Source of the DNA: Laetmonice hystrix
Taxonomy: Eukaryota
Direction of reading: 5' to 3'
Assembly: GCA_965235115.1 (NCBI GenBank)
Contig: OZ249436.1
Location: 11,162,001-11,226,000 of the forward strand
Length of the DNA stretch: 64,000 bases
Part shown: piece after piece, positions 18,534-60,127 of the stretch
How positions within the stretch are numbered: the first letter of the stretch is position 1
Layout of the letters: the number at the start of each line of letters is the position of its first letter
The notes under the pieces: generated by a model
The model's input: only the letters and a program-made list of their open reading frames with translations
What the model was told of the DNA's origin: nothing
The model's database searches: none
Translations under genes and position numbers: made by a program

Positions 18534-19703
18534 CTACCAGACTTGATGGGTGGAGTATCTGCCGTAGGGCGAGTACCGTACAGAGTGATGAGGGTGGCGA
18601 TTCACGTACTGGCTGGGGTGAGGGTGTGGCATGGGGGCGGTTGAGATGGCAGACATGATGGTGACGGGCGGGTGAGAACCAACCATCCCTGGGTAGGGGG
18701 ATGTCGGGACCATCATGGCGGGGTTGTACTGGCTGGGGATGGCCTGGTGAGGTCCCTCTGAAGTCTGACTGGTTACCGTTGGTAGGGCGGAGCAATGCGG
18801 CAGTGTCCCCGGTAGCATGGGCATCGCGAGGCCGGGGGCCGGCACGGGGAGTCCTGGGGACTGCATGTACGGGAAGCTCATCGCTGCCGGGTGCATGTAC
18901 GGATGGAATGGTCCAACCGACGCGGTGGTCGTCATGGGCATGTAGCCGAAGTTACAGGGGTAGGCGAGTGCCGCGGCAGCCTGGTCGGCCGCCGCTGTGG
19001 CTCGCGCCCTCCGCCTGGCCTGCCGCCGCCTGTAGTCACCGTTAGCGAAGTCATCGACGCAGGCCGGGTGGATGGCCCAGTAGTTACCCTTACCGTTGTC
19101 CGCCCGTCCCGCCTTGATGAAGCACTCGTTGAGACTGAGGTTGTGACGAATGGAGTTTCTCCACGCTCGCTCCTCGTTGTCATAGAACGGGAAACGGTCC
19201 ATGATGTACTGGTAGATCTCCGACAACACAAGTTTCCTCTCGGTGCTGTCCAGGATGGCCATCGATATGAGCGCGATGTAAGAGTGGGACGGTTTCTCGG
19301 TCCTGCTGGAACCACTACCGGCGGCCCCGGTCGGTGTGGAGGTCCGGGGATGGTGGCCCACATCGCCCGATATCGAGGATGGTGATCCCCGACCGCTGTC
19401 GTCGCTGGATGTCGGAGATAAACTACCCGTGGCCTCCATCTTCACAACCTCGGCAGAGAACGAGGACTCGGAGGAACTGCAGTCGGCGCTGCCGGTCGAC
19501 ATGGGTGATTTCTGGGCGGGGATGACCGTCGATCCTTGCGTGGTAGACACAGACAGTTGGCCGGCCGTCTGCTGGGCCGTAGTGGTGATGATGGCCGATT
19601 CTGTACTGCTCTGGTCGGTGTTAGCCACCGACTGCCACCGATTCGGGGACGTCAGCATAGCAATGCTGAACGGATGTTCATTGAACAAGTTCGTGCGTTC
19701 CAT
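18534..19703 (-). CDS. FoxQ2: FoxQ2-family forkhead transcription factor, single coding exon, 389 aa
   Basis: Uninterrupted ORF; N-terminal EH1-like FSIAML; forkhead KPSHSYIALISMAIL...WRNSIRHNLSLNECFIKAGRADNGKGNYWAIHPACVDDFANGDYRRRQARRR; GYMPMT and C-terminal RYSPY motifs. Confidence 0.95.
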   Translation of the reverse strand: MERTNLFNEHPFSIAMLTSPNRWQSVANTDQSSTESAIITTTAQQTAGQLSVSTTQGSTVIPAQKSPMSTGSADCSSSESSFSAEVVKMEATGSLSPTSSDDSGRGSPSSISGDVGHHPRTSTPTGAAGSGSSRTEKPSHSYIALISMAILDSTERKLVLSEIYQYIMDRFPFYDNEERAWRNSIRHNLSLNECFIKAGRADNGKGNYWAIHPACVDDFANGDYRRRQARRRARATAAADQAAAALAYPCNFGYMPMTTTASVGPFHPYMHPAAMSFPYMQSPGLPVPAPGLAMPMLPGTLPHCSALPTVTSQTSEGPHQAIPSQYNPAMMVPTSPYPGMVGSHPPVTIMSAISTAPMPHPHPSQYVNRHPHHSVRYSPYGRYSTHQVW

Positions 19704-30475: not shown

Positions 30476-31272
30476 CACTGTAAAAAATTTCTTGTAATAT
30501 TTACATTAAGTTACTGGCAGCTCATTCGCCAATAACTTAATGTGAAAATTACAGTAAAAATTCTTTAAAACACCAATTACAGGAAAGCTAAATAACAGTA
30601 ATTAGTGTAAAAATATTCTTGTAAAATTTACATTAAATTACTGACAGCTCATTCGCCAATAACTTAATGTAAACATTACAGTAATAATTAATTGTACACT
30701 GCACTAATGAAATTATAATACGCGAGAAACAAACATCTGGCTTTTTTTAGTTTAGATTCGTATGGGCCTGATGATTTCAGACAGGTCCATTCGAGGAAAA
30801 TGCTCTGCAAACGAAGAGGACTCCGCATGATAATGTCGACTGCTTTTACAAAGGAGTTAATAATTATGTTCTATGGCCTCCAAAGATGGTGTTTACATGA
30901 GCAATGTCAACAAATCCCACTTAATTTAGGCCCGGGTTTGGGCCTAATTAAGTATAGCAAACGGGGTAAACGTCAAATTACTGTAAAACGTCAAATTACT
31001 CGAAATTTTCTGCATTGAAGATGCTGTATCATTTACAATTGCTCTGTTGTACAAAATGCTTATTGCAGAGTTTACACTATAAGGAACGTTAATTGCAGTA
31101 AACGTCAAACTACTGTATAATTTACAGTAAAGGTGCTGCGTTATACAGTTATCTATTTCACAGCATCCCTAATGTAAAAATTACAGTAAAAGTCTAGTAA
31201 ATGAGGTAAACGTCAAATTACTGTAAAACTTACAGTATATTTCTTTAGAAATTACAACAATTTTTTACAGTG
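30476..31272. mobile_element. Non-autonomous CACTA/EnSpm-type DNA transposon
   Basis: CACTGTAAAAAA...TTTTTTACAGTG termini, 2-bp CA duplication, reiterated subterminal ttacagta/tactgtaa motifs; second copy at ~58886-59700. Confidence 0.85.
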
Positions 31273-32001
31273 CACACAATCCGATATCATCCGTAAAAAA
31301 CTCCCTCTCCACCTCTCGAGTTATCCAGAGCTGGGCGCCCATGCTTTGATATACAATGTCTTCTCATGATATACAATGTCTTCTCATGATATACAATGCC
31401 TTCTCATGATGTGTGTTTCCAAACGATTGGCCTTTCGACACGTAATGAGACTATTTTGGGATAGATTCCTGTCTTGGTTCTCCTTGCTTTGATTGATGTC
31501 GGTCTACTTGCTGTGATGTTATAGACGGTCGAGGCTGTAGTCATCGGATATCCCAGTATCAGGTGGCATGGATGAGCTTGGTATACGTAAAGATGGAGTT
31601 AACTGAATTATCTCCGACACTGATCACTTGGCACAAGGTTCATCATTCTGCAGGGGCTATTCTCAATAGAAGGCCTATATATAGCATCAATTAATGACGC
31701 GATAATGTAATCACATCGTATGATTTACGTATACGGAATCTTAAGGCGGTCACTCCAAGCTTACCTCGACGAGAAAGCTTAAGAATGACTGTTTATCCCA
31801 TAATGATATATGATACTTTGATCAAGTATTTATCGTTGTTGATGGCCCTCTGCCTGCCGGACGACGGGACTCCACGAGGTGGGGTGGGGTGGGGCAATTG
31901 AGAGGAGCCGTACATTTGGCCGTTTTTGGTGTCATCAGGTCGTTGTACATTTCGCAGTGATGGACGTAACAGCTGGAGCATCTCAATATATATACGGACA
32001 T

Positions 32002-32397
32002 TAATATCGACCTACAGCAGCCGACCCCCCAACCATCCTTAAGTATAGTAATATCGACCTACAGCAGCCGACCCCCCAACCATCCTTAAGTAAAGTAATA
32101 TCGACCTACAGCAGCCCACCCCCCCAACCATCCTTAAGTATAGTAATATCGACCTACAGCAGCCGACCCCCCAACCATCCTTAAGTATAGTAATATCGAC
32201 CTACAGCAGCCGACCCCCCAACCATCCTTAAGTATAGTAATATCGACCTACAGCAGCCGACCCCCCAACCATCCTTAAGTATAGTAATATCGACCTACAG
32301 CAGCCCACCCCCCCAACCATCCTTAAGTATAGTAATATCGACCTACAGCAGCCGACCCCTCAACCATCCATAAGTATAGGCCTAGTAATATCGACCT
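32002..32397. repeat. 47-bp minisatellite x~8
   Basis: Unit taatatcgacctacagcagccgaccccccaaccatccttaagtatag. Confidence 0.95.
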
Positions 32398-32554
32398 CCC
32401 TAACCCAGCCACCCACCCACCCCCGAGTATAACAGTACGCACAATAGGGCATTGCCTGGTGCCTATCCATTTCACTTCCTAGCCCTGGTCGGTGTATTAC
32501 CGTCCGGAGTAGTCAGTGAATTATTTCTAAAGATCAAGACAGAAAGTCATAAAG

Positions 32555-32761
32555 ATTCAACCTATACCTAACAATCGGTTGGAATAACATACTGTATTCA
32601 ACCTATACCTAACAATCGGTTGGAATAACATACTGTATTCAACCTATACCTAACAATCGGTTGGAATAACATACTGTATTCAACCTATACCTAACAATCG
32701 GTTGGAATAACATACCGTATTCAACCTATACCTAACAATCGGTTGGAATAACATACTGTAT
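32555..32761. repeat. 41-bp minisatellite x5
   Basis: Unit attcaacctatacctaacaatcggttggaataacatactgt. Confidence 0.95.
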
Positions 32762-32790
32762 AAAGAAAGGAGATACATGGCGTTGGTGGC

Positions 32791-32990
32791 ATCTCATCCA
32801 GTCTCGTCCAAGGCCTAGCTGTGATCTCATCCAGTCTCGCCCAAGGCCTAGCTGTGATCTCATCCACTCTCGCCCAAGGCCTAGCTGTGATCTCATCCAG
32901 TCTCGTCCAAGGCCTGGCTGTGATCTCATCCAGTCTCGTCCAAGGCCTGGCTGGGATCTCATCCAGTCTCGTTCAAGGCCTAGCTGTGAT
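32791..32990. repeat. 33-bp minisatellite x6
   Basis: Unit atctcatccagtctcgtccaaggcctagctgtg. Confidence 0.95.
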
Positions 32991-33055: not shown

Positions 33056-33188
<133 letters not shown>

Positions 33189-35146: not shown

Positions 35147-36350
35147 TGAAAGGGATACAGTTGTTTATGGCACCTAGTGAGGACGAACTGTATTACTCGG
35201 TGAAAGGGATACAGTTGTTTATGGTACCACGTCTATGATGGTATCTAGTGAAGACCAACTGACTCATTGAAAGGGATACAGTTGTTTATGGTACCACGTC
35301 TATGATGGTATCTAGTGAGGACCAACTGACTCATTGAAAGGGATACAGTTGTTTATGGTACCACGTCTATGATGGTACCTAGTGAAGACCAACTGACTCA
35401 TTGAAAGGGATACAGTTGTTTATGGTACCACGTCTATGATGGGATATATCTAGTGAAGACCAACTGACTCATTGAAAGGGATACAGTTGTTTATGGTACC
35501 ACGTCTATGATGGGATATATCTAGTGAAGACCAACTGACTCATTGAAAGGGATACAGTTGTTTATGGTACCACGTCTATGATGGGATATATCTAGTGAAG
35601 ACCAACTGACTCATTGAAAGGGATACAGTTGTTTATGGTACCTAGTGAGGAGGAACTGTATTACTCATTGAAAGGGATACAGTTGTTTATGGTACCACGT
35701 CTATGATGGTATCTAGTGAAGACCAACTGACTCATTGAAAGGGATACAGTTGTTTATGGTACTACGTCTATGATGGTATCTAGTGAAGACCAACTGACTC
35801 ATTGAAAGGGATACAGTTGTTTATGGTACCACGTCTATGATGGTACCTAGTGAGGACCAACTGACTCATTGAAAGGGATACAGTTGTTTATGGTACCACG
35901 TCTATGATGGTATCTAGTGAGGACCAACTGACTCATTGAAAGGGATACAGTTGTTTATGGTACCACGTCTATGATGGTATCTAGTGAGGGCGAACTGACT
36001 CATTGAAAGGGATACAGTTGTTTATGGTACTACGTCTATGATGGTATCTAGTGAAGACCAACTGACTCATTGAAAGGGATACAGTTGTTTATGGTACCAC
36101 GTCTATGATGGTATCTAGTGAGGACCAACTGACTCATTGAAAGGGATACAGTTGTTTATGGTACCACGTCTATGATGGTATCTAGTGAAGACCAACTGAC
36201 TCATTGAAAGGGATACAGTTGTTTATGGTACCACGTCTATGATGGTATCTAGTGAAGACCAACTGACTCATTGAAAGGGATACAGTTGTTTATGGTACCA
36301 GTCCACGTCTATGATGGTACCTATTGAGGACGAACTGTATTACTCGTTGA
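35147..36350. repeat. ~67-bp minisatellite, ~18 copies
   Basis: Unit tgaaagggatacagttgtttatggtaccacgtctatgatggtatctagtgaagaccaactgactcat. Confidence 0.96.
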
Positions 36351-38284
36351 AACACAAAATTAGCAAGCTTCGAAGGACTATATTTCATGCGCATGCCTAT
36401 CGTCTCTTCCACGGTACGTAAGTAAGGTCTAGTCTTGGGGGAAATGGGATAACTGATTACAAGCAATCCTTGTGCTTAGTTTATTTTAGGGTTACCGAGG
36501 ACCGGAAGGAAGTTGGAGATTCTGTTTCCTGGAAAACGTAATTCGGCAAATTTTCGCGTCTGGAAATTTTATAGACGCGCAGCTTATTTCACCACAGTTC
36601 AGTTTCCTAAACGGATAAAGCTGACGTCGTTTTTCTACACATTCCAAGGGAAAGGCGAATTGGCATAACAAGGATTGCGCAAGATGAAGAGAATATAAGA
36701 ATTTAATTTTAAGTGTGGGAAGCTTTTTATCAGTTGCATGTCCAAAGGCCATTCGCCCTGCACCAATGACGAAGGGGGTCGTTTGGGGCCTATCGTGTGA
36801 GAAGAGGTTCAAGTTGAGGCCAAAGGTTGGTACTTAGATACATGTCCTTAAATCAAGGATTACTCACACGGTTTGGTGGATCTGATTAGCACATATCGTG
36901 CAGCTGCAGTAACTGTCAGAACCTCGAAACGCAAAGCCATCTCGAGTCGCTTGGTGGTCCTCAGGGGTGGCTTCCCGTTCATGTGGACACATGCGCTCAA
37001 ACTCATAATGCGACCGCTCCACTATTAGTTCTAAGACCGCCATGGCCCCGGTCCATTGGGGATCCGCCCTCGGAACCTTTTTTAAGTTGGCAGGAGTGCC
37101 GTGGGAGAACGCATACCTAGCGGAATTAAACAGATTTGTGTGTGATTTCGGAAGCCTCCAGCTGAGCCGCCAGACTGATGTTATTCCAAGATATTTCCAT
37201 CGGTACTTTGCTTATCTCATTTTACATGGCGTATCCAGAATTTTAAAATAGGGAAGTCATAGAGTTCGAACCCCGATCACGCCTGCATGCTATAACCTAT
37301 ATGGCCATCATATTTTCCGAGAGAGAGACAGAGACAGAGCGAGGGAGGGAGAGAATTCTTTCATCTGATGGTTCGAACCCGCTTTGCAGGACAAGTCATA
37401 AGGAACCCCTTACATGCATGTGTGCATGCCTTGGCAATATTTGGGACCGGATACGGGGATGTTCCCGTGGCCGATGTTCACGTCTAGGTCGAGTGTAACG
37501 TATGACTTTTCTAACATCCCAGGATGTCTGACGTGGCAGAGATCATGTCATAATGCATTGGAACTAAGCATCCGGTCGACTGCCAGCAGATGGCCAACTA
37601 CTTCGTCAATTTGTAGCCATTACCAGTCATCCGTAAGTACATACCTCACCCTCTCTATGCACCTCCACATGAGAATACATCCATTTAATCCATTATTATA
37701 TTAAAATACGTGGATAAAAACAAACTAGGTTGTACAAGCAGCCAGAGTGCCGTGCGTCAGTCAAGTGTAGACATAGTTATGTAAAACATACGAGTATGTT
37801 AAACTAAAAAAAAGAGTTTTTGCATAGAAAATTGTTTTGAGATTCGGGTTGCTGGGAATGGTTTGACATCTGACATTAGTAATTATCTGTTCCAATTTCC
37901 ATGTCTGTGTCATCCTTCTCTGTAACACTATATCGCACATTATACGTTGGGATCCAGTCATCCGTGACCGGCCGACGGAAGTCACGTCAACATCTCCGCT
38001 CTCAGAATGTTTACCTCACACGTCCCATCTCGTAAATCGTCTTGGTAACGTCACGTTCAGACAGGTTAGACCGGATTCCTAATCCGAACCATCTATTATC
38101 GCTCTGCCGTTTACACACAGCCATCCTGTCCTCGCCAAGGACTGTACATGTACAACTCACTGCCTGTTTAAAGGTCTGCCAGCACATACCTAACTCACCC
38201 GGCGCTGTAACGGGGGGTGGTACTACATCGGAACCCGGGTAAAATCAAATTTGAGGGCAAGAGCCCGGCACTTTACTTCGACCC

Positions 38285-47445: not shown

Positions 47446-47802
47446 TTGATGATTTGAAATGGTCGTACGAAAAAGAATCATTGAATCTATTTATTAAATT
47501 TCATACTGCACAAAAGTCAAATATGTCTAGTTACTTTTGCAATAATTTTCACGTGAATGGATTCATTATTACCACCGCGAGAGCGTTTTGAAGCACCTGA
47601 ATTCAGAAAAACTAAGCTTTTCGTTCGCAAATTACGCCGGTAAATAATCTGAAATTTATAATACATGTTCCTGTGCTTCCATAGGCCCCATAGTTAACAT
47701 CGCGTCACCCTGAAACGTGTACAATCAAATCAGTCCGTATGAAACTCCCGTGCCATACGGACCACCGTATGGCACCCCCCCCCCTCTGAACGGCACTGGC
47801 AG
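47446..47802 (+). repeat. Dispersed repeat, left member of an inverted pair
   Basis: Reverse-complement match to 57819-58315. Confidence 0.8.
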
Positions 47803-48865
47803 ATGGAATGCGCATATAATAAAAGAAGTTATGGGATTTTTTTTCAATTTTATCGGCCATCTTGGATTTTTTGTAATGCCCAAGGGTGAGAGCTCCACAC
47901 CCACCAGGAAATCATTATACCCTTCCCAGTGATGAATAATCTGCAGAGAAGTCGGGCTTGGGCCAAAAATCAGGGTTCTGCTGCCGGACTAACAGATAGT
48001 GTTTTAATACTCTCCTGCCGGGTCTGTGTGGCCCGATCCTTTCGTCACGTTGTGATAGAGTAGTTTAACCTTCCGATTCTATTTTGGTGGATTGGCGTAA
48101 GGGATCTCTTTCTAACCCATTGTGTAATTTACAACAATAATTACTTTGTTGTAGTGAATTTTCTGGCGTTCCTCCGACAGCCTTTAGCACATTTGCTTAA
48201 GGAATATTTATTGTTTCAATCAAGAACATGATCCCTATAAAGATTACTGAAGTGTATATATCCTTTGATAATAATTCCTGAAACGTACGAAATGGCAGAA
48301 CAATAGTGAACTTAAGCTCAAATGGCTCAATTCAAACATAATTGAGAATGTCATGGAAGAGACTCAGAATTATTAAACAAATATGATTACATGAGGAGAA
48401 ATTGGTGAAAATGAAGTCTTTCATACAGTTTTAATTATATTATGTGAAACGCTATCATTTCGTGCCTATCAGAGTAGCTTCCCTCTTGTCTATCACCCAA
48501 ACTGTTTGTCTTTCAATCTGATATTCTATGTACACCGTACTAATCACAACCTCAAACTAGACATCATGATTGCAAGCAATACACTAATCCCATTTCCCCC
48601 GGACGTCATGAGGAAAACGCCAGGTGCCATTCGTATGCTATCAAGTAACTAAAGTGGCCCATAGCCTTACCACTCTGCCATCTTGGTTTTACTGTCAGTC
48701 CTGGAACCTTTGTCCCAAATCTCAGAAATGGTAATTGACTGAGGTCAAGTTATGGGAAAATTATCTCTGAAAACCATGTATGTCAAAATATTTCATAACT
48801 ATGATTTTGACAAGGCCTCATATCCTGCCGGGTGGTGTTTTGGTATTCAGAGTCTGAAAAATGAG

Positions 48866-48953
48866 AAAAAAAAATTCCCGTATTTGGTGGGATTCGAACC
48901 CAAGATCTCCGGCCCTTAGGTCGGGCATGCTACCAACTCAGCTATTGAGACTC
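48866..48953 (-). ncRNA. tRNA-derived Pol III-type cassette, copy 1 (not a canonical tRNA)
   Basis: A box TAGCTGAGTTGG, B box GGTTCGAATCC at tRNA-like spacing, T9 run downstream; acceptor and anticodon stems do not pair. Confidence 0.5.
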
Positions 48954-49239
48954 ACGCTTGTAGAGGTACCTAGGTCCTATTTGAAATAGGTGGATGACGT
49001 CATGACACAAAAGAGTGACGTCACAGAAAAAAGTTTGCATAAATCTAGCTCAGCATCCCATCCTCTTTAAGCCTATTAAGTTTCGTTAAGATCTGTTAAA
49101 AACTGCCAGAGATATGACCGATTTCTGGTAAACTTTATCTTTGAGAACCATGTATGTCAAAACATTTCATAACTATGACTGTGACAAGGCCTCATATCCT
49201 GCCTGGTGGTGTTTTGGTTTTCAGAGTGTGAAAAATGAG

Positions 49240-49325
49240 AAAAAAGTTTTTGTACTTGGTGGGATTCGAACCGATGATCTCCAGCCTTTAGGTCGGGCAT
49301 GCTACCCACTCAGCTATTGAGACTC
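49240..49325 (-). ncRNA. tRNA-derived Pol III-type cassette, copy 2 (not a canonical tRNA)
   Basis: A box TAGCTGAGTGGG, B box GGTTCGAATCC, T6 run downstream. Confidence 0.5.
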
Positions 49326-50567
49326 ACGGGTATAGAGGTACCTGGGTCCTATTTGAAATAGGTGGATGACTTTATGACACAAAAGAGTGACGTCACAGAA
49401 ATAAGTTTGCATAAATCTAGCTCAGCATCCCATCCTCTTTAAGCCTACCAAGTTTCATTAAGATCTGTTAATAACTGCCAGAGATATGACCGATTTCTGG
49501 TAAACTGACCAAAGAATCAAACTTTGATGTCACGTGATTCAGTGAAAAAAGGTCCGATCGCTAAACAACGGCCCCACAATTTTAAGCTATCCACTAGGAA
49601 CACCCAGAAGTGGTTTGGTCAAGATTTTCAAAAAAATGAGAGAGTAGTAAGGATTTAACCATATTGTGACCTTTGACCCGTATCTCAGAAAGGGTAATGA
49701 TCCAAGGTCAAGTTATGGAACAAGTATCTTAGAGAACCATCCACGAAGAGGATCTATAACCAATATTTCCCCAAGTAACAGTAGTTTTGTGTTGGGAGTT
49801 GATAAATTGATGCTCCATGTGACGTGTTTGAGACGTCATAAAACCAAGACATGACGTCGCATGAAGTCCTGCTTCATATGCACAGATCTTCATCCCATGA
49901 TGAACCCTCCCTGCAAGTTTCAACCTGCTATCTTAAAAAGTGACCGAGATATACACTTTGTCTTACAACAGGAATAATAATAATAATAATAATAATAATA
50001 GTGTAGACGAAACCATACAAAATCAAAATCCCATTTCCCCGTCAGGGAAATGGGATAATTATTCACATTTTTTAAATTTTACGTACGGGTTGTGTTTATT
50101 TTTCTCCACACACTTGATATTTAATTCAAGTAAAGAACGGATGTTAAAATGTTTACCGTTAAGAAAAGGGATGCGTAGTGTATAAGAACGGCATGCCATG
50201 CAAGGAAGGAGTGGTACGCCAAGGTTCCGTATCTTTGTCAGCCCTTGGTGCACCATTTGGAATCGCCTACATAATTTAGGCCTACTATTACGTTTCTATA
50301 TTTTTTGTGAAGAACTCTGCTAGTGGATTAGTCAGCACAAACCATAGTATTTAAGCCAGTATATTTGTAAATTCTCATACTCGAAACGTTGTTTCGAAAT
50401 GGGGCGGAGAGGCCTACATTGGACTCAGGAATGCAGCTGAAATATCAAGTCCCCCTCCCAAATTATAGGAATATCTTGGAAACCGGACCAGTTGTCATTT
50501 TTTCTAGCTAGGCAGAGGAGGACGGAAGGAATAAACATACTGGAGACGGATCATGTTTGGCTTAACG

Positions 50568-57590: not shown

Positions 57591-57818
57591 CAGTTGTAGG
57601 TACACATAGTGAATACGTTGTCGTCTACTCCTTGTCGGCACCAAGGCCTATAGATCTATAAGACATCTTTAGTGAAAGAACTTAATCTCTTATCTTTATC
57701 GCGAACTGTTGACACCTATTATATAATTTTGCTTTCGCTCTGGCCCCTCCAGAGATTCCCAATGTTCCAGCCTGTGAGTCGTACAAACACTGAAATAATT
57801 TTTATATTATTTGCGCAT

Positions 57819-58315
57819 GCCATCTGCCAGTGCTGTTCAGGGTGGTGCCATATGGTGGTCCGTATGGCACGGGAGTTCCAGTTCCATACGGACTGATTTG
57901 ATTGTACACGTTTCAGGGTGACGCGACGTTAACTATGGGACCCTATGGAAGCACAGGAACATGTATTATAATTTACAGATGTGACCCGTTCAGGGGTGTA
58001 GGCAGAACTGAGATGGGGGAGGGGTTCCCAACCATAATATTAGTTCTTCATTTATTCAGTTATTTCAGTCTATTAATTTTGGGTTGGGGGGGGGGGGTTC
58101 CGGGCAACCCGACCCCCCCCCCGGCTACACCCTTGCCGTTACAGACGTAATTAGCGGACTATAAAAGCTTAGTTTTTCTGTACTCAGGTGCTTCAAAATG
58201 CGCTCGCGGTGGTAAGAATGAATCAATTCATATGGAAATTATTGCAAAAGAACTAGACATAAATATATAAATAGATTTAATCATTCTTTTCCGTACGACC
58301 ATTTAAAATCATCAA
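57819..58315 (-). repeat. Dispersed repeat, right member of the inverted pair, MITE-interrupted
   Basis: Reverse-complement match to 47446-47802. Confidence 0.8.
57991..58135. mobile_element. MITE nested in the dispersed repeat
   Basis: caggggtgtag ... ctacacccttg termini; ccgtt on both flanks; absent from the 47.6-kb copy. Confidence 0.7.
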
Positions 58316-58810: not shown

Positions 58811-58885
58811 GTACCATGTCATAATGTTTTAATAATTAGATTTAGACAATTCAGAGTCGAGAATCTAATAATTACGGGCTTGGTC

Positions 58886-59700
58886 AATAACTTAATGTAA
58901 ACATTACAGTAACAATTAATTGTACACTGCACTAATGAAATTATAATACGCGAGAAACAAACATCTGGCTTTTTTTAGTTTAGATTCGTATGGGCCTGAT
59001 GATTTCAGACAGGTCCATTCGAGGAAAATGCACACGTCTGCAACCTAAGAGGACTCCGCATGATAATGTCGACTGCTTTTACAAAGGAGTTAATAATTAT
59101 GTTCTATGGCGTCCAAAGATGGTGTTTACATGAGCAATGTCAACAAATCCCACATAATTAGGCCTGGGTTTGACATAACACTCTACTCACTATCACAAAG
59201 ACTGTACTTCATATTATTGTTCATTTATGCCCACAGTTTCATTAGCCGACTCTCACAGGTATATGACACTTCGGGGCATAAACAAAGAAAGGGACAGGTG
59301 AGCGTCATCACGTGACCACTGTGCTGGTTATCCAGTAACCATCTGTTTTTAGGGTGGAATGTAAAAATTACAGTAACAGTATAGCAAACGGGGTAAACGT
59401 CAAATTACTGTAAAACGTCAAATTACCTTGAAATTTTCTGCATTGAAGATGCTGTATCATTTACAATTGCTCTGTTGTACAAAATGCTTATTGCAGAATT
59501 TACACTATAAGGAACGGTAATTGCAGTAAACGTCAAACTACTGTATAATTTACAGTAAAGGTGCTGCGTTATACAGTTATCTATTTCACAGCATCCCTAA
59601 TGTAAAAATTACAGTAAAAGTCTAGTAAACGAGGTAAACGTCAAATTACTGTAAAATTTACAGTATATTTCTTTAGAAAGTACAACCACTTTTTACAGTG
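58886..59700 (+). mobile_element. Second, 5'-truncated copy of the CACTG element with extra internal sequence
   Basis: Near-identical to 30657-31272; ends ttttacagtg. Confidence 0.88.
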
Positions 59701-60127
59701 CAGTTCTCTTATTGTGTAGACATCAAATTACAAGTCACATGCATTGTCCTGTTATTTTACGCGTGATGCATCGTGACAGGAAGTTTAGTGCCACCGGACA
59801 TGCCTTTGTCCCTAGGGACAGCACAGTTAACGGGTATATTCCTCACCTGTACCTTCTCACTCAAGTAAACAGGTAAACAAGATGAAATGAAAGATGTGCA
59901 GTATTACATTCTGCCAGCATCCATTTCATTCACTTCAAGTTGTGATGGTGACGAATATCCGGAGACACCAGCACGACGGCAGAACGCCCTACTGTTTTCG
60001 TTAAGGGGCAAGGGGGGGGGGTAATGCAATCTCACAGAAAATATTCTCTAAAATGTCGGTGCGCGGCACCTATTTGTATGCCTAGTTACTGATCGCATCC
60101 TCTGCATTATTTTGATTATAAATCCTC

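Follow-up and report, generated by a model that had tools for sequence, protein, structure and literature searches.

The stretch of Laetmonice hystrix DNA analysed here (64,000 nt of contig OZ249436.1, positions 11,162,001 to 11,226,000; hereafter the window) contains, at 48555..50058 on the minus strand, a mobile element that carries two copies of a tRNA-derived RNA polymerase III (Pol III) unit. By its end structure the element is a HINE, a non-autonomous Helentron-type element, with a TT dinucleotide at each end. The initial annotation of this DNA had described ends of the HINE/DINE-1 type enclosing a tandem pair of Pol III cassettes. That observation is real, and we confirm the features where it placed them. 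On the minus strand the element opens with TT and a 12-bp subterminal inverted repeat (subTIR), followed by a 5-nt loop, the inverted partner of the subTIR and (TTA)9. Internal modules and the two tandem units come next, and the 3' subTIR, a palindrome with 5-bp arms and CTAG-TT close it. No open reading frame of at least 120 amino acids is present in the element.

The ends have the features by which HINEs are recognized. The 5' subTIR (50045..50056) lies directly behind the TT and pairs with an internal inverted repeat (50028..50039) to form a 12-bp hairpin with a 5-nt loop. This hairpin (50028-50056) folds at -12.8 kcal/mol (z -5.4), and 0 of 200 shuffles folded as well. A microsatellite of 9.3 TTA units follows on the minus strand (49973..50000; (AAT)9.3 on the plus strand). 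The 12-bp 3' subTIR (48587..48598) starts 42 bp from the 3' end. The shared 12-mer, ATCCCATTTCCC, occurs four times in the window, three of them inside the element, where 0.41 would be expected. HINE subTIRs are 11-15 bp long, with the 3' one about 38-60 bp from the end, and those found here are perfect. The internal inverted repeat, expected 1-22 bp from the 5' subTIR, is 5 nt from it, and the element has a microsatellite behind the 5' module, central tandem repeats and no coding capacity. These ends match the DINE-1/HINE definition (PMC4067079) and the oyster Cg_HINE (PMC7492417). The 3' stem-loop of the initial annotation stands in part: a short palindrome with 5-bp arms and a 2-nt loop can be read at 48569..48580, within the expected 8-35 bp of the 3' end, and is followed by the CTAG end (48560-48557) and TT, but its fold is weak, being equalled or bettered by 195 of 200 shuffles.

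To look beyond the window, contigs of four out of six runs, X1 and X2 (organism A), X5 (a marine metagenome) and X6 (organism B), were matched to positions 48000-50520 at 80% identity or more. One contig each in X1 and X2 carries the empty site, joining 48554 to 50057 and skipping 1502 bases with a 2-nt ambiguity. The empty allele has a single AA where the window has AA at both ends of the element, so the insertion is 1,502 bp long and adds one TT. On the element strand the empty target reads TTT, i.e., the element inserted at TT in T-rich sequence. HLE2 also prefers TT targets (PMC11417382). The contigs with the empty allele, which are public and come from the same organism, thus mark the 1,502-bp element as a polymorphic insertion, made at a TT site. 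The empty haplotypes of X1 and X2 carry differing flank variants, although by their records both come from one sample. No contig joining flank to element was among the rows listed for either X1 or X2.

A cut-and-paste miniature inverted-repeat transposable element (MITE) that makes a 2-bp AA/TT duplication would likewise give one AA in the empty allele and two in the filled one, and at this one site an extra TT and a 2-bp duplication are not distinguishable. Pearl and DTC84 were first read as such elements (PMC3879986). However, the inverted repeats here are subterminal and asymmetric and are accompanied by an internal repeat at the 5' end, by a microsatellite and by a 3' palindrome, and elements of this structure were reclassified as Helentrons, whose terminal Ts are variable and do not represent a duplication (PMC4067079, PMC7492417). 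We therefore give the MITE explanation almost no credence.

The element belongs to an interspersed family with shared termini, as the initial annotation had anticipated. Flank depth is 46.5 and 30.9, and depth climbs to thousands in the bins that hold the termini. A single 170-nt internal contig has a depth of 9,275, about 200 times that of the flank, and other positions reach 160-400 times. Summed contig depth is not copy number, hence we put the copy level solely as of the order of hundreds. Contigs at least 95% alike to the element make up 319 of 527 in X1 and 407 of 604 in X2. Internally deleted members also occur, with joints 48619->50035 and 48598->49557 among others; these two derivatives retain both ends, have lost the cassette and are at single-copy depth. 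Within the window a second, solitary 3' end of the same subTIR family lies at 36437-36482 on the plus strand. It has a different stem-loop and sits 100 bp behind an array of a 67-bp minisatellite (35201-36337), and no matching 5' end was found within the 64 kb. Element pieces 97-99% identical to this copy occur in X5 (49002-49256) and X6 (48832-49092) at a depth of 2-6 and without flanks; these are probably trace DNA of a high-copy repeat rather than products of horizontal transfer.

The center of the element consists of unit 2 (49135..49506, 372 bp) and unit 1 (48761..49134, 374 bp), both on the minus strand. The two differ by 29 substitutions and a 2-nt indel and are 91.7% identical (29 substitutions in 372 nt, 7.8%). 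Each contains a tRNA-derived cassette: cassette 1 at 48879..48951, with its A box at 48944-48933 and B box at 48900-48890, and cassette 2 at 49251..49323, with its A box at 49316-49305 and B box at 49272-49262. In both units the minus strand reads a consensus-matching A box, GGTTCGAATCC, and a first T-run 15-16 nt past the B box. The T-runs, predicted Pol III terminators, are T9 at 48866..48874 for cassette 1 and T6 at 49240..49245, preceded by A5, for cassette 2, in an element in which 24% of positions have a run of four or more Ts within 20 nt downstream. Upstream, a palindromic AT-rich box covers -39/-25 of each cassette (48976..48990 and 49348..49362). In unit 1 a cAMP response element (CRE)-type motif, TGACGTCA, lies exactly at -51/-44 (48995..49002); its counterpart in unit 2 (49367-49374) has two changes. 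A second CRE-type site is at -72/-65 in both units. The initial annotation had thus correctly reported a unit of about 373 bp, present twice, with palindromic box, A box, B box and T-run.

Several observations indicate that the cassette is derived from a tRNA, although it is no longer one. We numbered the cassettes as tRNA from 48951 and 49323, without gaps, and scored them against a list of invariant and semi-invariant tRNA positions that was written after the sequence had been seen. Each cassette matches 22 of 23 positions, and the sole miss is U33 (position 33). Elsewhere in the window no score exceeds 18, and the highest among 3,000 dinucleotide shuffles of the element is 20. The cloverleaf, in contrast, is broken, as had been noted before: 11 of 21 pairs can form in cassette 1 and 10 of 21 in cassette 2, and neither folds better than its shuffles (z 0.52 and 0.39). 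ARAGORN reports no tRNA gene in the element at its default and 90% thresholds; at 80% cassette 1 is among 3 hits, and at 70% both cassettes are among 7, which is uninformative. A search of Rfam with the element and each cassette (E<=10) listed no tRNA (RF00005) match and no family of the 7SL, 4.5S or Vault type. All of its matches were sub-threshold, the best relevant one being a T-arm fragment of tmRNA at 7 bits. In a blastn search against phages the cassette gave only weak tRNA hits of mixed isotype, with best coverage from tRNA-Leu at E=5, and the cassette motifs had 0 matches in viral and prokaryotic contigs.

The retention of the boxes without the stems is difficult to obtain by neutral decay. 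Whatever rate of decay was simulated, no more than 44 of 20,000 runs ended with at least 22 invariants together with 11 or fewer pairs. All 16 box positions together with 13 or fewer pairs, a count that permits a shifted D stem, arose in at most 58 of 10,000. The model starts from a perfect cloverleaf and assumes a standard short-arm parent and no indels. Since such runs so seldom keep the boxes while losing the stems, the model implies that the promoter was preserved at some stage after the structure was lost; it does not tell when. Boxes kept while stems are lost is the usual history of the heads of short interspersed elements (SINEs).

Comparison of the two units in this copy gives no indication that selection acts at present: the cassette has diverged at the background rate. 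Between the two units it has 6 changes in 72 nt, where 5.6 are expected. The A box has 1 change in 12 nt, and over all three boxes 1 of 38 nt differs, where 3.0 are expected (P=0.19, a test with two sequences only and hence of low power). None of 15 predicted consensus pairs shows a compensatory change. The identical B box (0 of 11 changed) had been offered as a sign of conservation, but at 7.8% divergence identity is expected by chance (P=0.41), and thus it is no evidence of present selection.

The tRNA-like core appears to sit among older modules of the element. A copy of the unit-opening module without a cassette lies at 49814..49952 (minus strand), with GACGTC motifs at matching places. 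It aligns with 49487-49347 at 89 of 145 identical columns (score 48; shuffled maximum 40, n=500), and the alignment spans both CRE-like motifs and reaches the AT-rich box. Behind the T-run the sequence is collinear with 49648-49610, but the score of that match (24, against a shuffled mean of 23) is at chance level, and we count it for collinear position only. The tRNA-like core and a 24-nt spacer occupy the place of about 165 nt of other sequence in the older monomer. By these alignments the CRE sites come from the element's own older modules, and the T-run probably does too. Because the flanking motifs align with the cassette-free module, we infer a chimeric origin of the unit, in which an inserted piece came to lie between modules already present and no whole gene was captured.

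This result bears on the proposal that a rolling-circle element had captured a complete Pol III gene. According to this proposal, DNA-level uptake of a host tRNA gene included the gene's 5' flank and terminator, and only neutral decay followed. The cassette does keep exact tRNA spacing and has 6 of 7 non-box invariants (chance P=0.023), its T-run begins 5-6 nt past position 73, and DNA-level gene capture is established for Helitrons. However, the flanks align with a module that the element already had, and neutral decay gives the observed pattern in at most 44 of 20,000 or 58 of 10,000 simulated runs. Whole-gene capture is therefore disfavoured, and we regard it as very unlikely.

Could the cassette instead be the head of an independent, abundant SINE, one copy of which merely happens to lie inside the element? 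Its SINE-like pattern of conservation, its A/B-box head and the A5 behind the head in unit 2 would fit. As far as visible, there is no sign of a large free family. In X1 the depth at the cassette (7,844, 7,461 and 7,511) is not above that at 49681 (9,761), sequence running on unlike the element makes up 1% of the matched sequence, and none of the 15 loose ends listed is at the 5' end of the cassette. These counts cover relatives at least 80% identical; older families below 80% would escape. The cassette also lacks the other parts of a SINE. A body or a tail from a long interspersed element (LINE), free of an internal terminator, is missing, as is a repeat tail, and no target-site duplication was seen by eye around the cassette. 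Instead, T6-T9 at position 78-79, right behind the head, would stop a SINE transcript, and the sequence beyond it is a module of the element. We consider a free SINE quite improbable, and the idea that the cassette is dispersed by the element holds up, with a depth at the cassette equal to that of the rest.

The unit is probably competent for Pol III transcription. An upstream layout of the Vault/7SL/4.5S type can be read in unit 1, with the CRE at -51/-44 and AT-rich sequence at -31/-24, which reads TTCAAATA if transcription starts at -3; in unit 2 the proximal CRE is broken. As this layout predicts, the element could be transcribed wherever it lands. Two further observations, single and post hoc like the preceding ones, hint at function. 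First, in an X2 contig of a diverged subfamily (depth 547) only 9 of the 20 letters at 49330-49349 match by hand count, and the spacer length is kept; 11 or more mismatches in 20 at 20% divergence has P=0.0006, uncorrected. Second, four X2 contigs have another 3' flank and depart from this copy past the B box, yet retain an A-run and then a T-run.

One way to explain these observations is that the Pol III unit benefits the element. Binding of TFIIIC and TFIIIB, or short transcription, might aid donor copies by keeping them open, insulating them from silencing or providing single-stranded DNA for RepHel; copies with intact boxes would then spread more, and the unit would have been kept for that reason. 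All 16 box positions are intact with the stems lost, the CRE, the AT-rich box near -30 and the T-run at 78-79 together make the layout of a non-tRNA type 2 gene, the diverged subfamily keeps its spacer length, and at 49373 the letter in the majority of the family reverses one of the changes in unit 2 and shifts the motif back towards TGACGTCA. On the other hand, the units show no excess conservation (three boxes, P=0.19), the CRE-like motifs predate the cassette, and in this copy the proximal CRE of unit 2 is disrupted. The spacer case is one contig and is partly explicable by compensating indels, and family members without the cassette also exist. We think a benefit of this kind unlikely, if worth entertaining. 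The same holds for its widest form, in which an active rolling-circle family would have built a full Pol III gene (CRE, TATA-like box, A box, B box and terminator) from a tRNA-derived core and its own modules and would keep it under selection, since donor copies would be protected or primed by TFIIIC binding or short transcription, while the family spreads TFIIIC sites, polymorphic and in their hundreds, together with a gene for an 80-90-nt RNA through the genome; this we put forward as a doubtful proposition.

Our preferred explanation, to which we assign a probability of roughly 0.6, is that this is a recent copy of a multi-copy HINE, mobilized in trans by RepHel, in which a SINE-head-like relic has been duplicated as the central repeat and is carried as a passenger that is probably Pol III-competent but neutral. 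Based on Helentron biology, RepHel encoded elsewhere would nick at the 5' TT/subTIR hairpin, one strand would be displaced until the 3' subTIR and palindrome stop the process, and the copy would be inserted between two T residues. In our reconstruction, about 100 nt of tRNA-like sequence took the place of part of an internal module. It would have landed downstream of the element's CRE motifs and upstream of its T-rich motif, and the new monomer would then have been duplicated. The outcome would be a type 2 Pol III gene layout with a predicted RNA of about 80-90 nt.

Several points weigh against this explanation. The parent SINE family was not seen among the contigs matched, in which the cassette has the same depth as the remainder of the element, and so we only infer the SINE origin of the cassette. 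No target-site duplication was seen around the cassette, and a SINE body is absent. A CRE at -51/-44 and an AT-rich box near -30 have the spacing of 7SL and 4.5SH (PMC7279448), which a passenger would not need. The diverged X2 subfamily alters 11 of 20 spacer letters without altering spacer length, the four contigs with another 3' flank still have the A-run and T-run, and the comparison of two units is low in power.

The setting of the element raised the question of a role for the host. A single-exon forkhead open reading frame of 389 amino acids lies at 18534-19703 on the minus strand. Its closest database protein is 60% identical and has no name; its named relatives are mostly from molluscs, annelids and nemerteans and include Saccoglossus FoxQ2-like and Branchiostoma FoxQ2a, and the gene is probably FoxQ2. 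The initial annotation had placed the element in the upstream region of this gene, and the host might use the cassette as a small RNA gene or as a TFIIIC barrier that shapes FoxQ2-like expression. The boxes do match the consensus and the element is upstream of a forkhead gene with FoxQ2-named relatives. However, its near end is 28,852 bp (28.9 kb) upstream of the start codon, it is absent from both haplotypes sequenced in X1 and X2, and the cassette has no conserved RNA structure and belongs to no Rfam family. A role in FoxQ2 expression is unlikely because the insertion is distant and polymorphic, and we see host use of the cassette as a remote prospect. The earlier interpretation is thus partly supported: the element, its mobility and its tandem cassettes are borne out, and a greater conservation of the boxes than of their neighbours between the two units, the complete captured gene and the link to FoxQ2 are not.

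Some other features of the window and of the searches deserve mention. The window is rich in minisatellites. A perfect (TCTG)33 at 33056-33188, a microsatellite of the DINE-1 type, stands beside three minisatellite arrays (32002-32990), and no subTIR of the element's family was found near it. Two pairs of repeats are present, 30657-31274 with 58885-59702 (96-97% identical) and 47446-47832 with 57795-58315 (78-87% identical). Metagenome matches to the 5' hairpin at two loci were set aside as chance: they are GC-rich contigs with stacked palindromes, and the similarity is limited to the hairpin. These loci (L001, 599-750, and L002, 502-615) each have three stacked palindromes past a stop codon, like bacterial intergenic repeats.

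Transcription or binding of the unit would make a DNA transposon a vehicle by which Pol III genes and TFIIIC sites spread with no reverse transcription involved. As filled and empty alleles both segregate, one can test directly what a new TFIIIC site does to local chromatin. Selection of the promoter within the family, if it occurred, would mean that a rolling-circle element whose movement requires no RNA is served by a host promoter.

The known elements most like this one are the HINEs and DINE-1-like elements. DINE-1/HINE (PMC4067079), Cg_HINE (PMC7492417), Pearl and DTC84 (PMC3879986) and HLE2 (PMC11417382) share with it 12-bp subTIRs, a 5' internal repeat, a microsatellite, a short array of central tandem repeats, a 3' palindrome (weak here), a TT target, a noncoding sequence and deletion derivatives. 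In Cg_HINE the central repeats most often number 2-3 (PMC7492417). In contrast to these elements, whose central monomers are 140-180 bp, the monomer here is 372-374 bp, and its A and B boxes are complete and stand in tRNA register. For the related bivalve elements Pearl and DTC84, PMC3879986 reports that such complete boxes are missing, and the passages of PMC4067079 and PMC11417382 that were searched do not mention tRNA. In the full-text papers searched we found no description of a Helentron or HINE with complete tRNA-type A and B boxes, and an annotation in Repbase, Dfam or SINEBase is conceivable.

The cargo resembles several Pol III systems, each in part. Like the heads of tRNA-derived SINEs, it has kept its A and B boxes, lost the cloverleaf and, in one unit, has a short A-run behind the head. 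Unlike them, it has no body or LINE-like tail, no target-site duplication that we could see and a T-run behind the head, and it spreads as DNA inside another element. The layout of 7SL, 4.5SH, 4.5SI and EBER, with a CRE at -51/-44, an AT-rich box near -31/-24, A and B boxes and a T-run, is also similar. According to PMC7279448, 7SL and 4.5SH have the CRE at -51/-44 and a TATA-like box at -31/-24, and SINE copies lack the CRE; TTCAAATA would be one letter off the mouse 4.5SH box if transcription starts at -3. Those genes are mammalian or viral with proven transcripts, whereas here the layout is read from the sequence and the cassette has neither homology to them nor an Rfam match. A cluster of tRNA-Cys genes in Arabidopsis that overlaps annotated Helitrons (PMC10701932) likewise associates tRNA sequence, tandemly repeated with a unit of about 0.4 kb, with a rolling-circle element. 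In that cluster the tRNAs are intact, a single locus is involved, and none of three Helitron finders confirmed the element, whereas here there is an empty allele and the tRNA is degenerate.

Lastly, the Cassandra elements of plants and the Ajax elements of ribbon worms are terminal-repeat retrotransposons in miniature (TRIMs) that carry 5S promoters (PMC10946416). They too are non-autonomous elements with a host-derived internal Pol III promoter, and a unit that benefits its element could be viewed as the rolling-circle counterpart of their 5S promoter. However, they are long terminal repeat retroelements that need RNA, and their promoter is of type 1, whereas here a type 2 promoter is carried by a DNA element that is not known to need RNA. 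The element itself is of an ordinary class, a well-confirmed HINE, and it is the Pol III cargo that is unusual.

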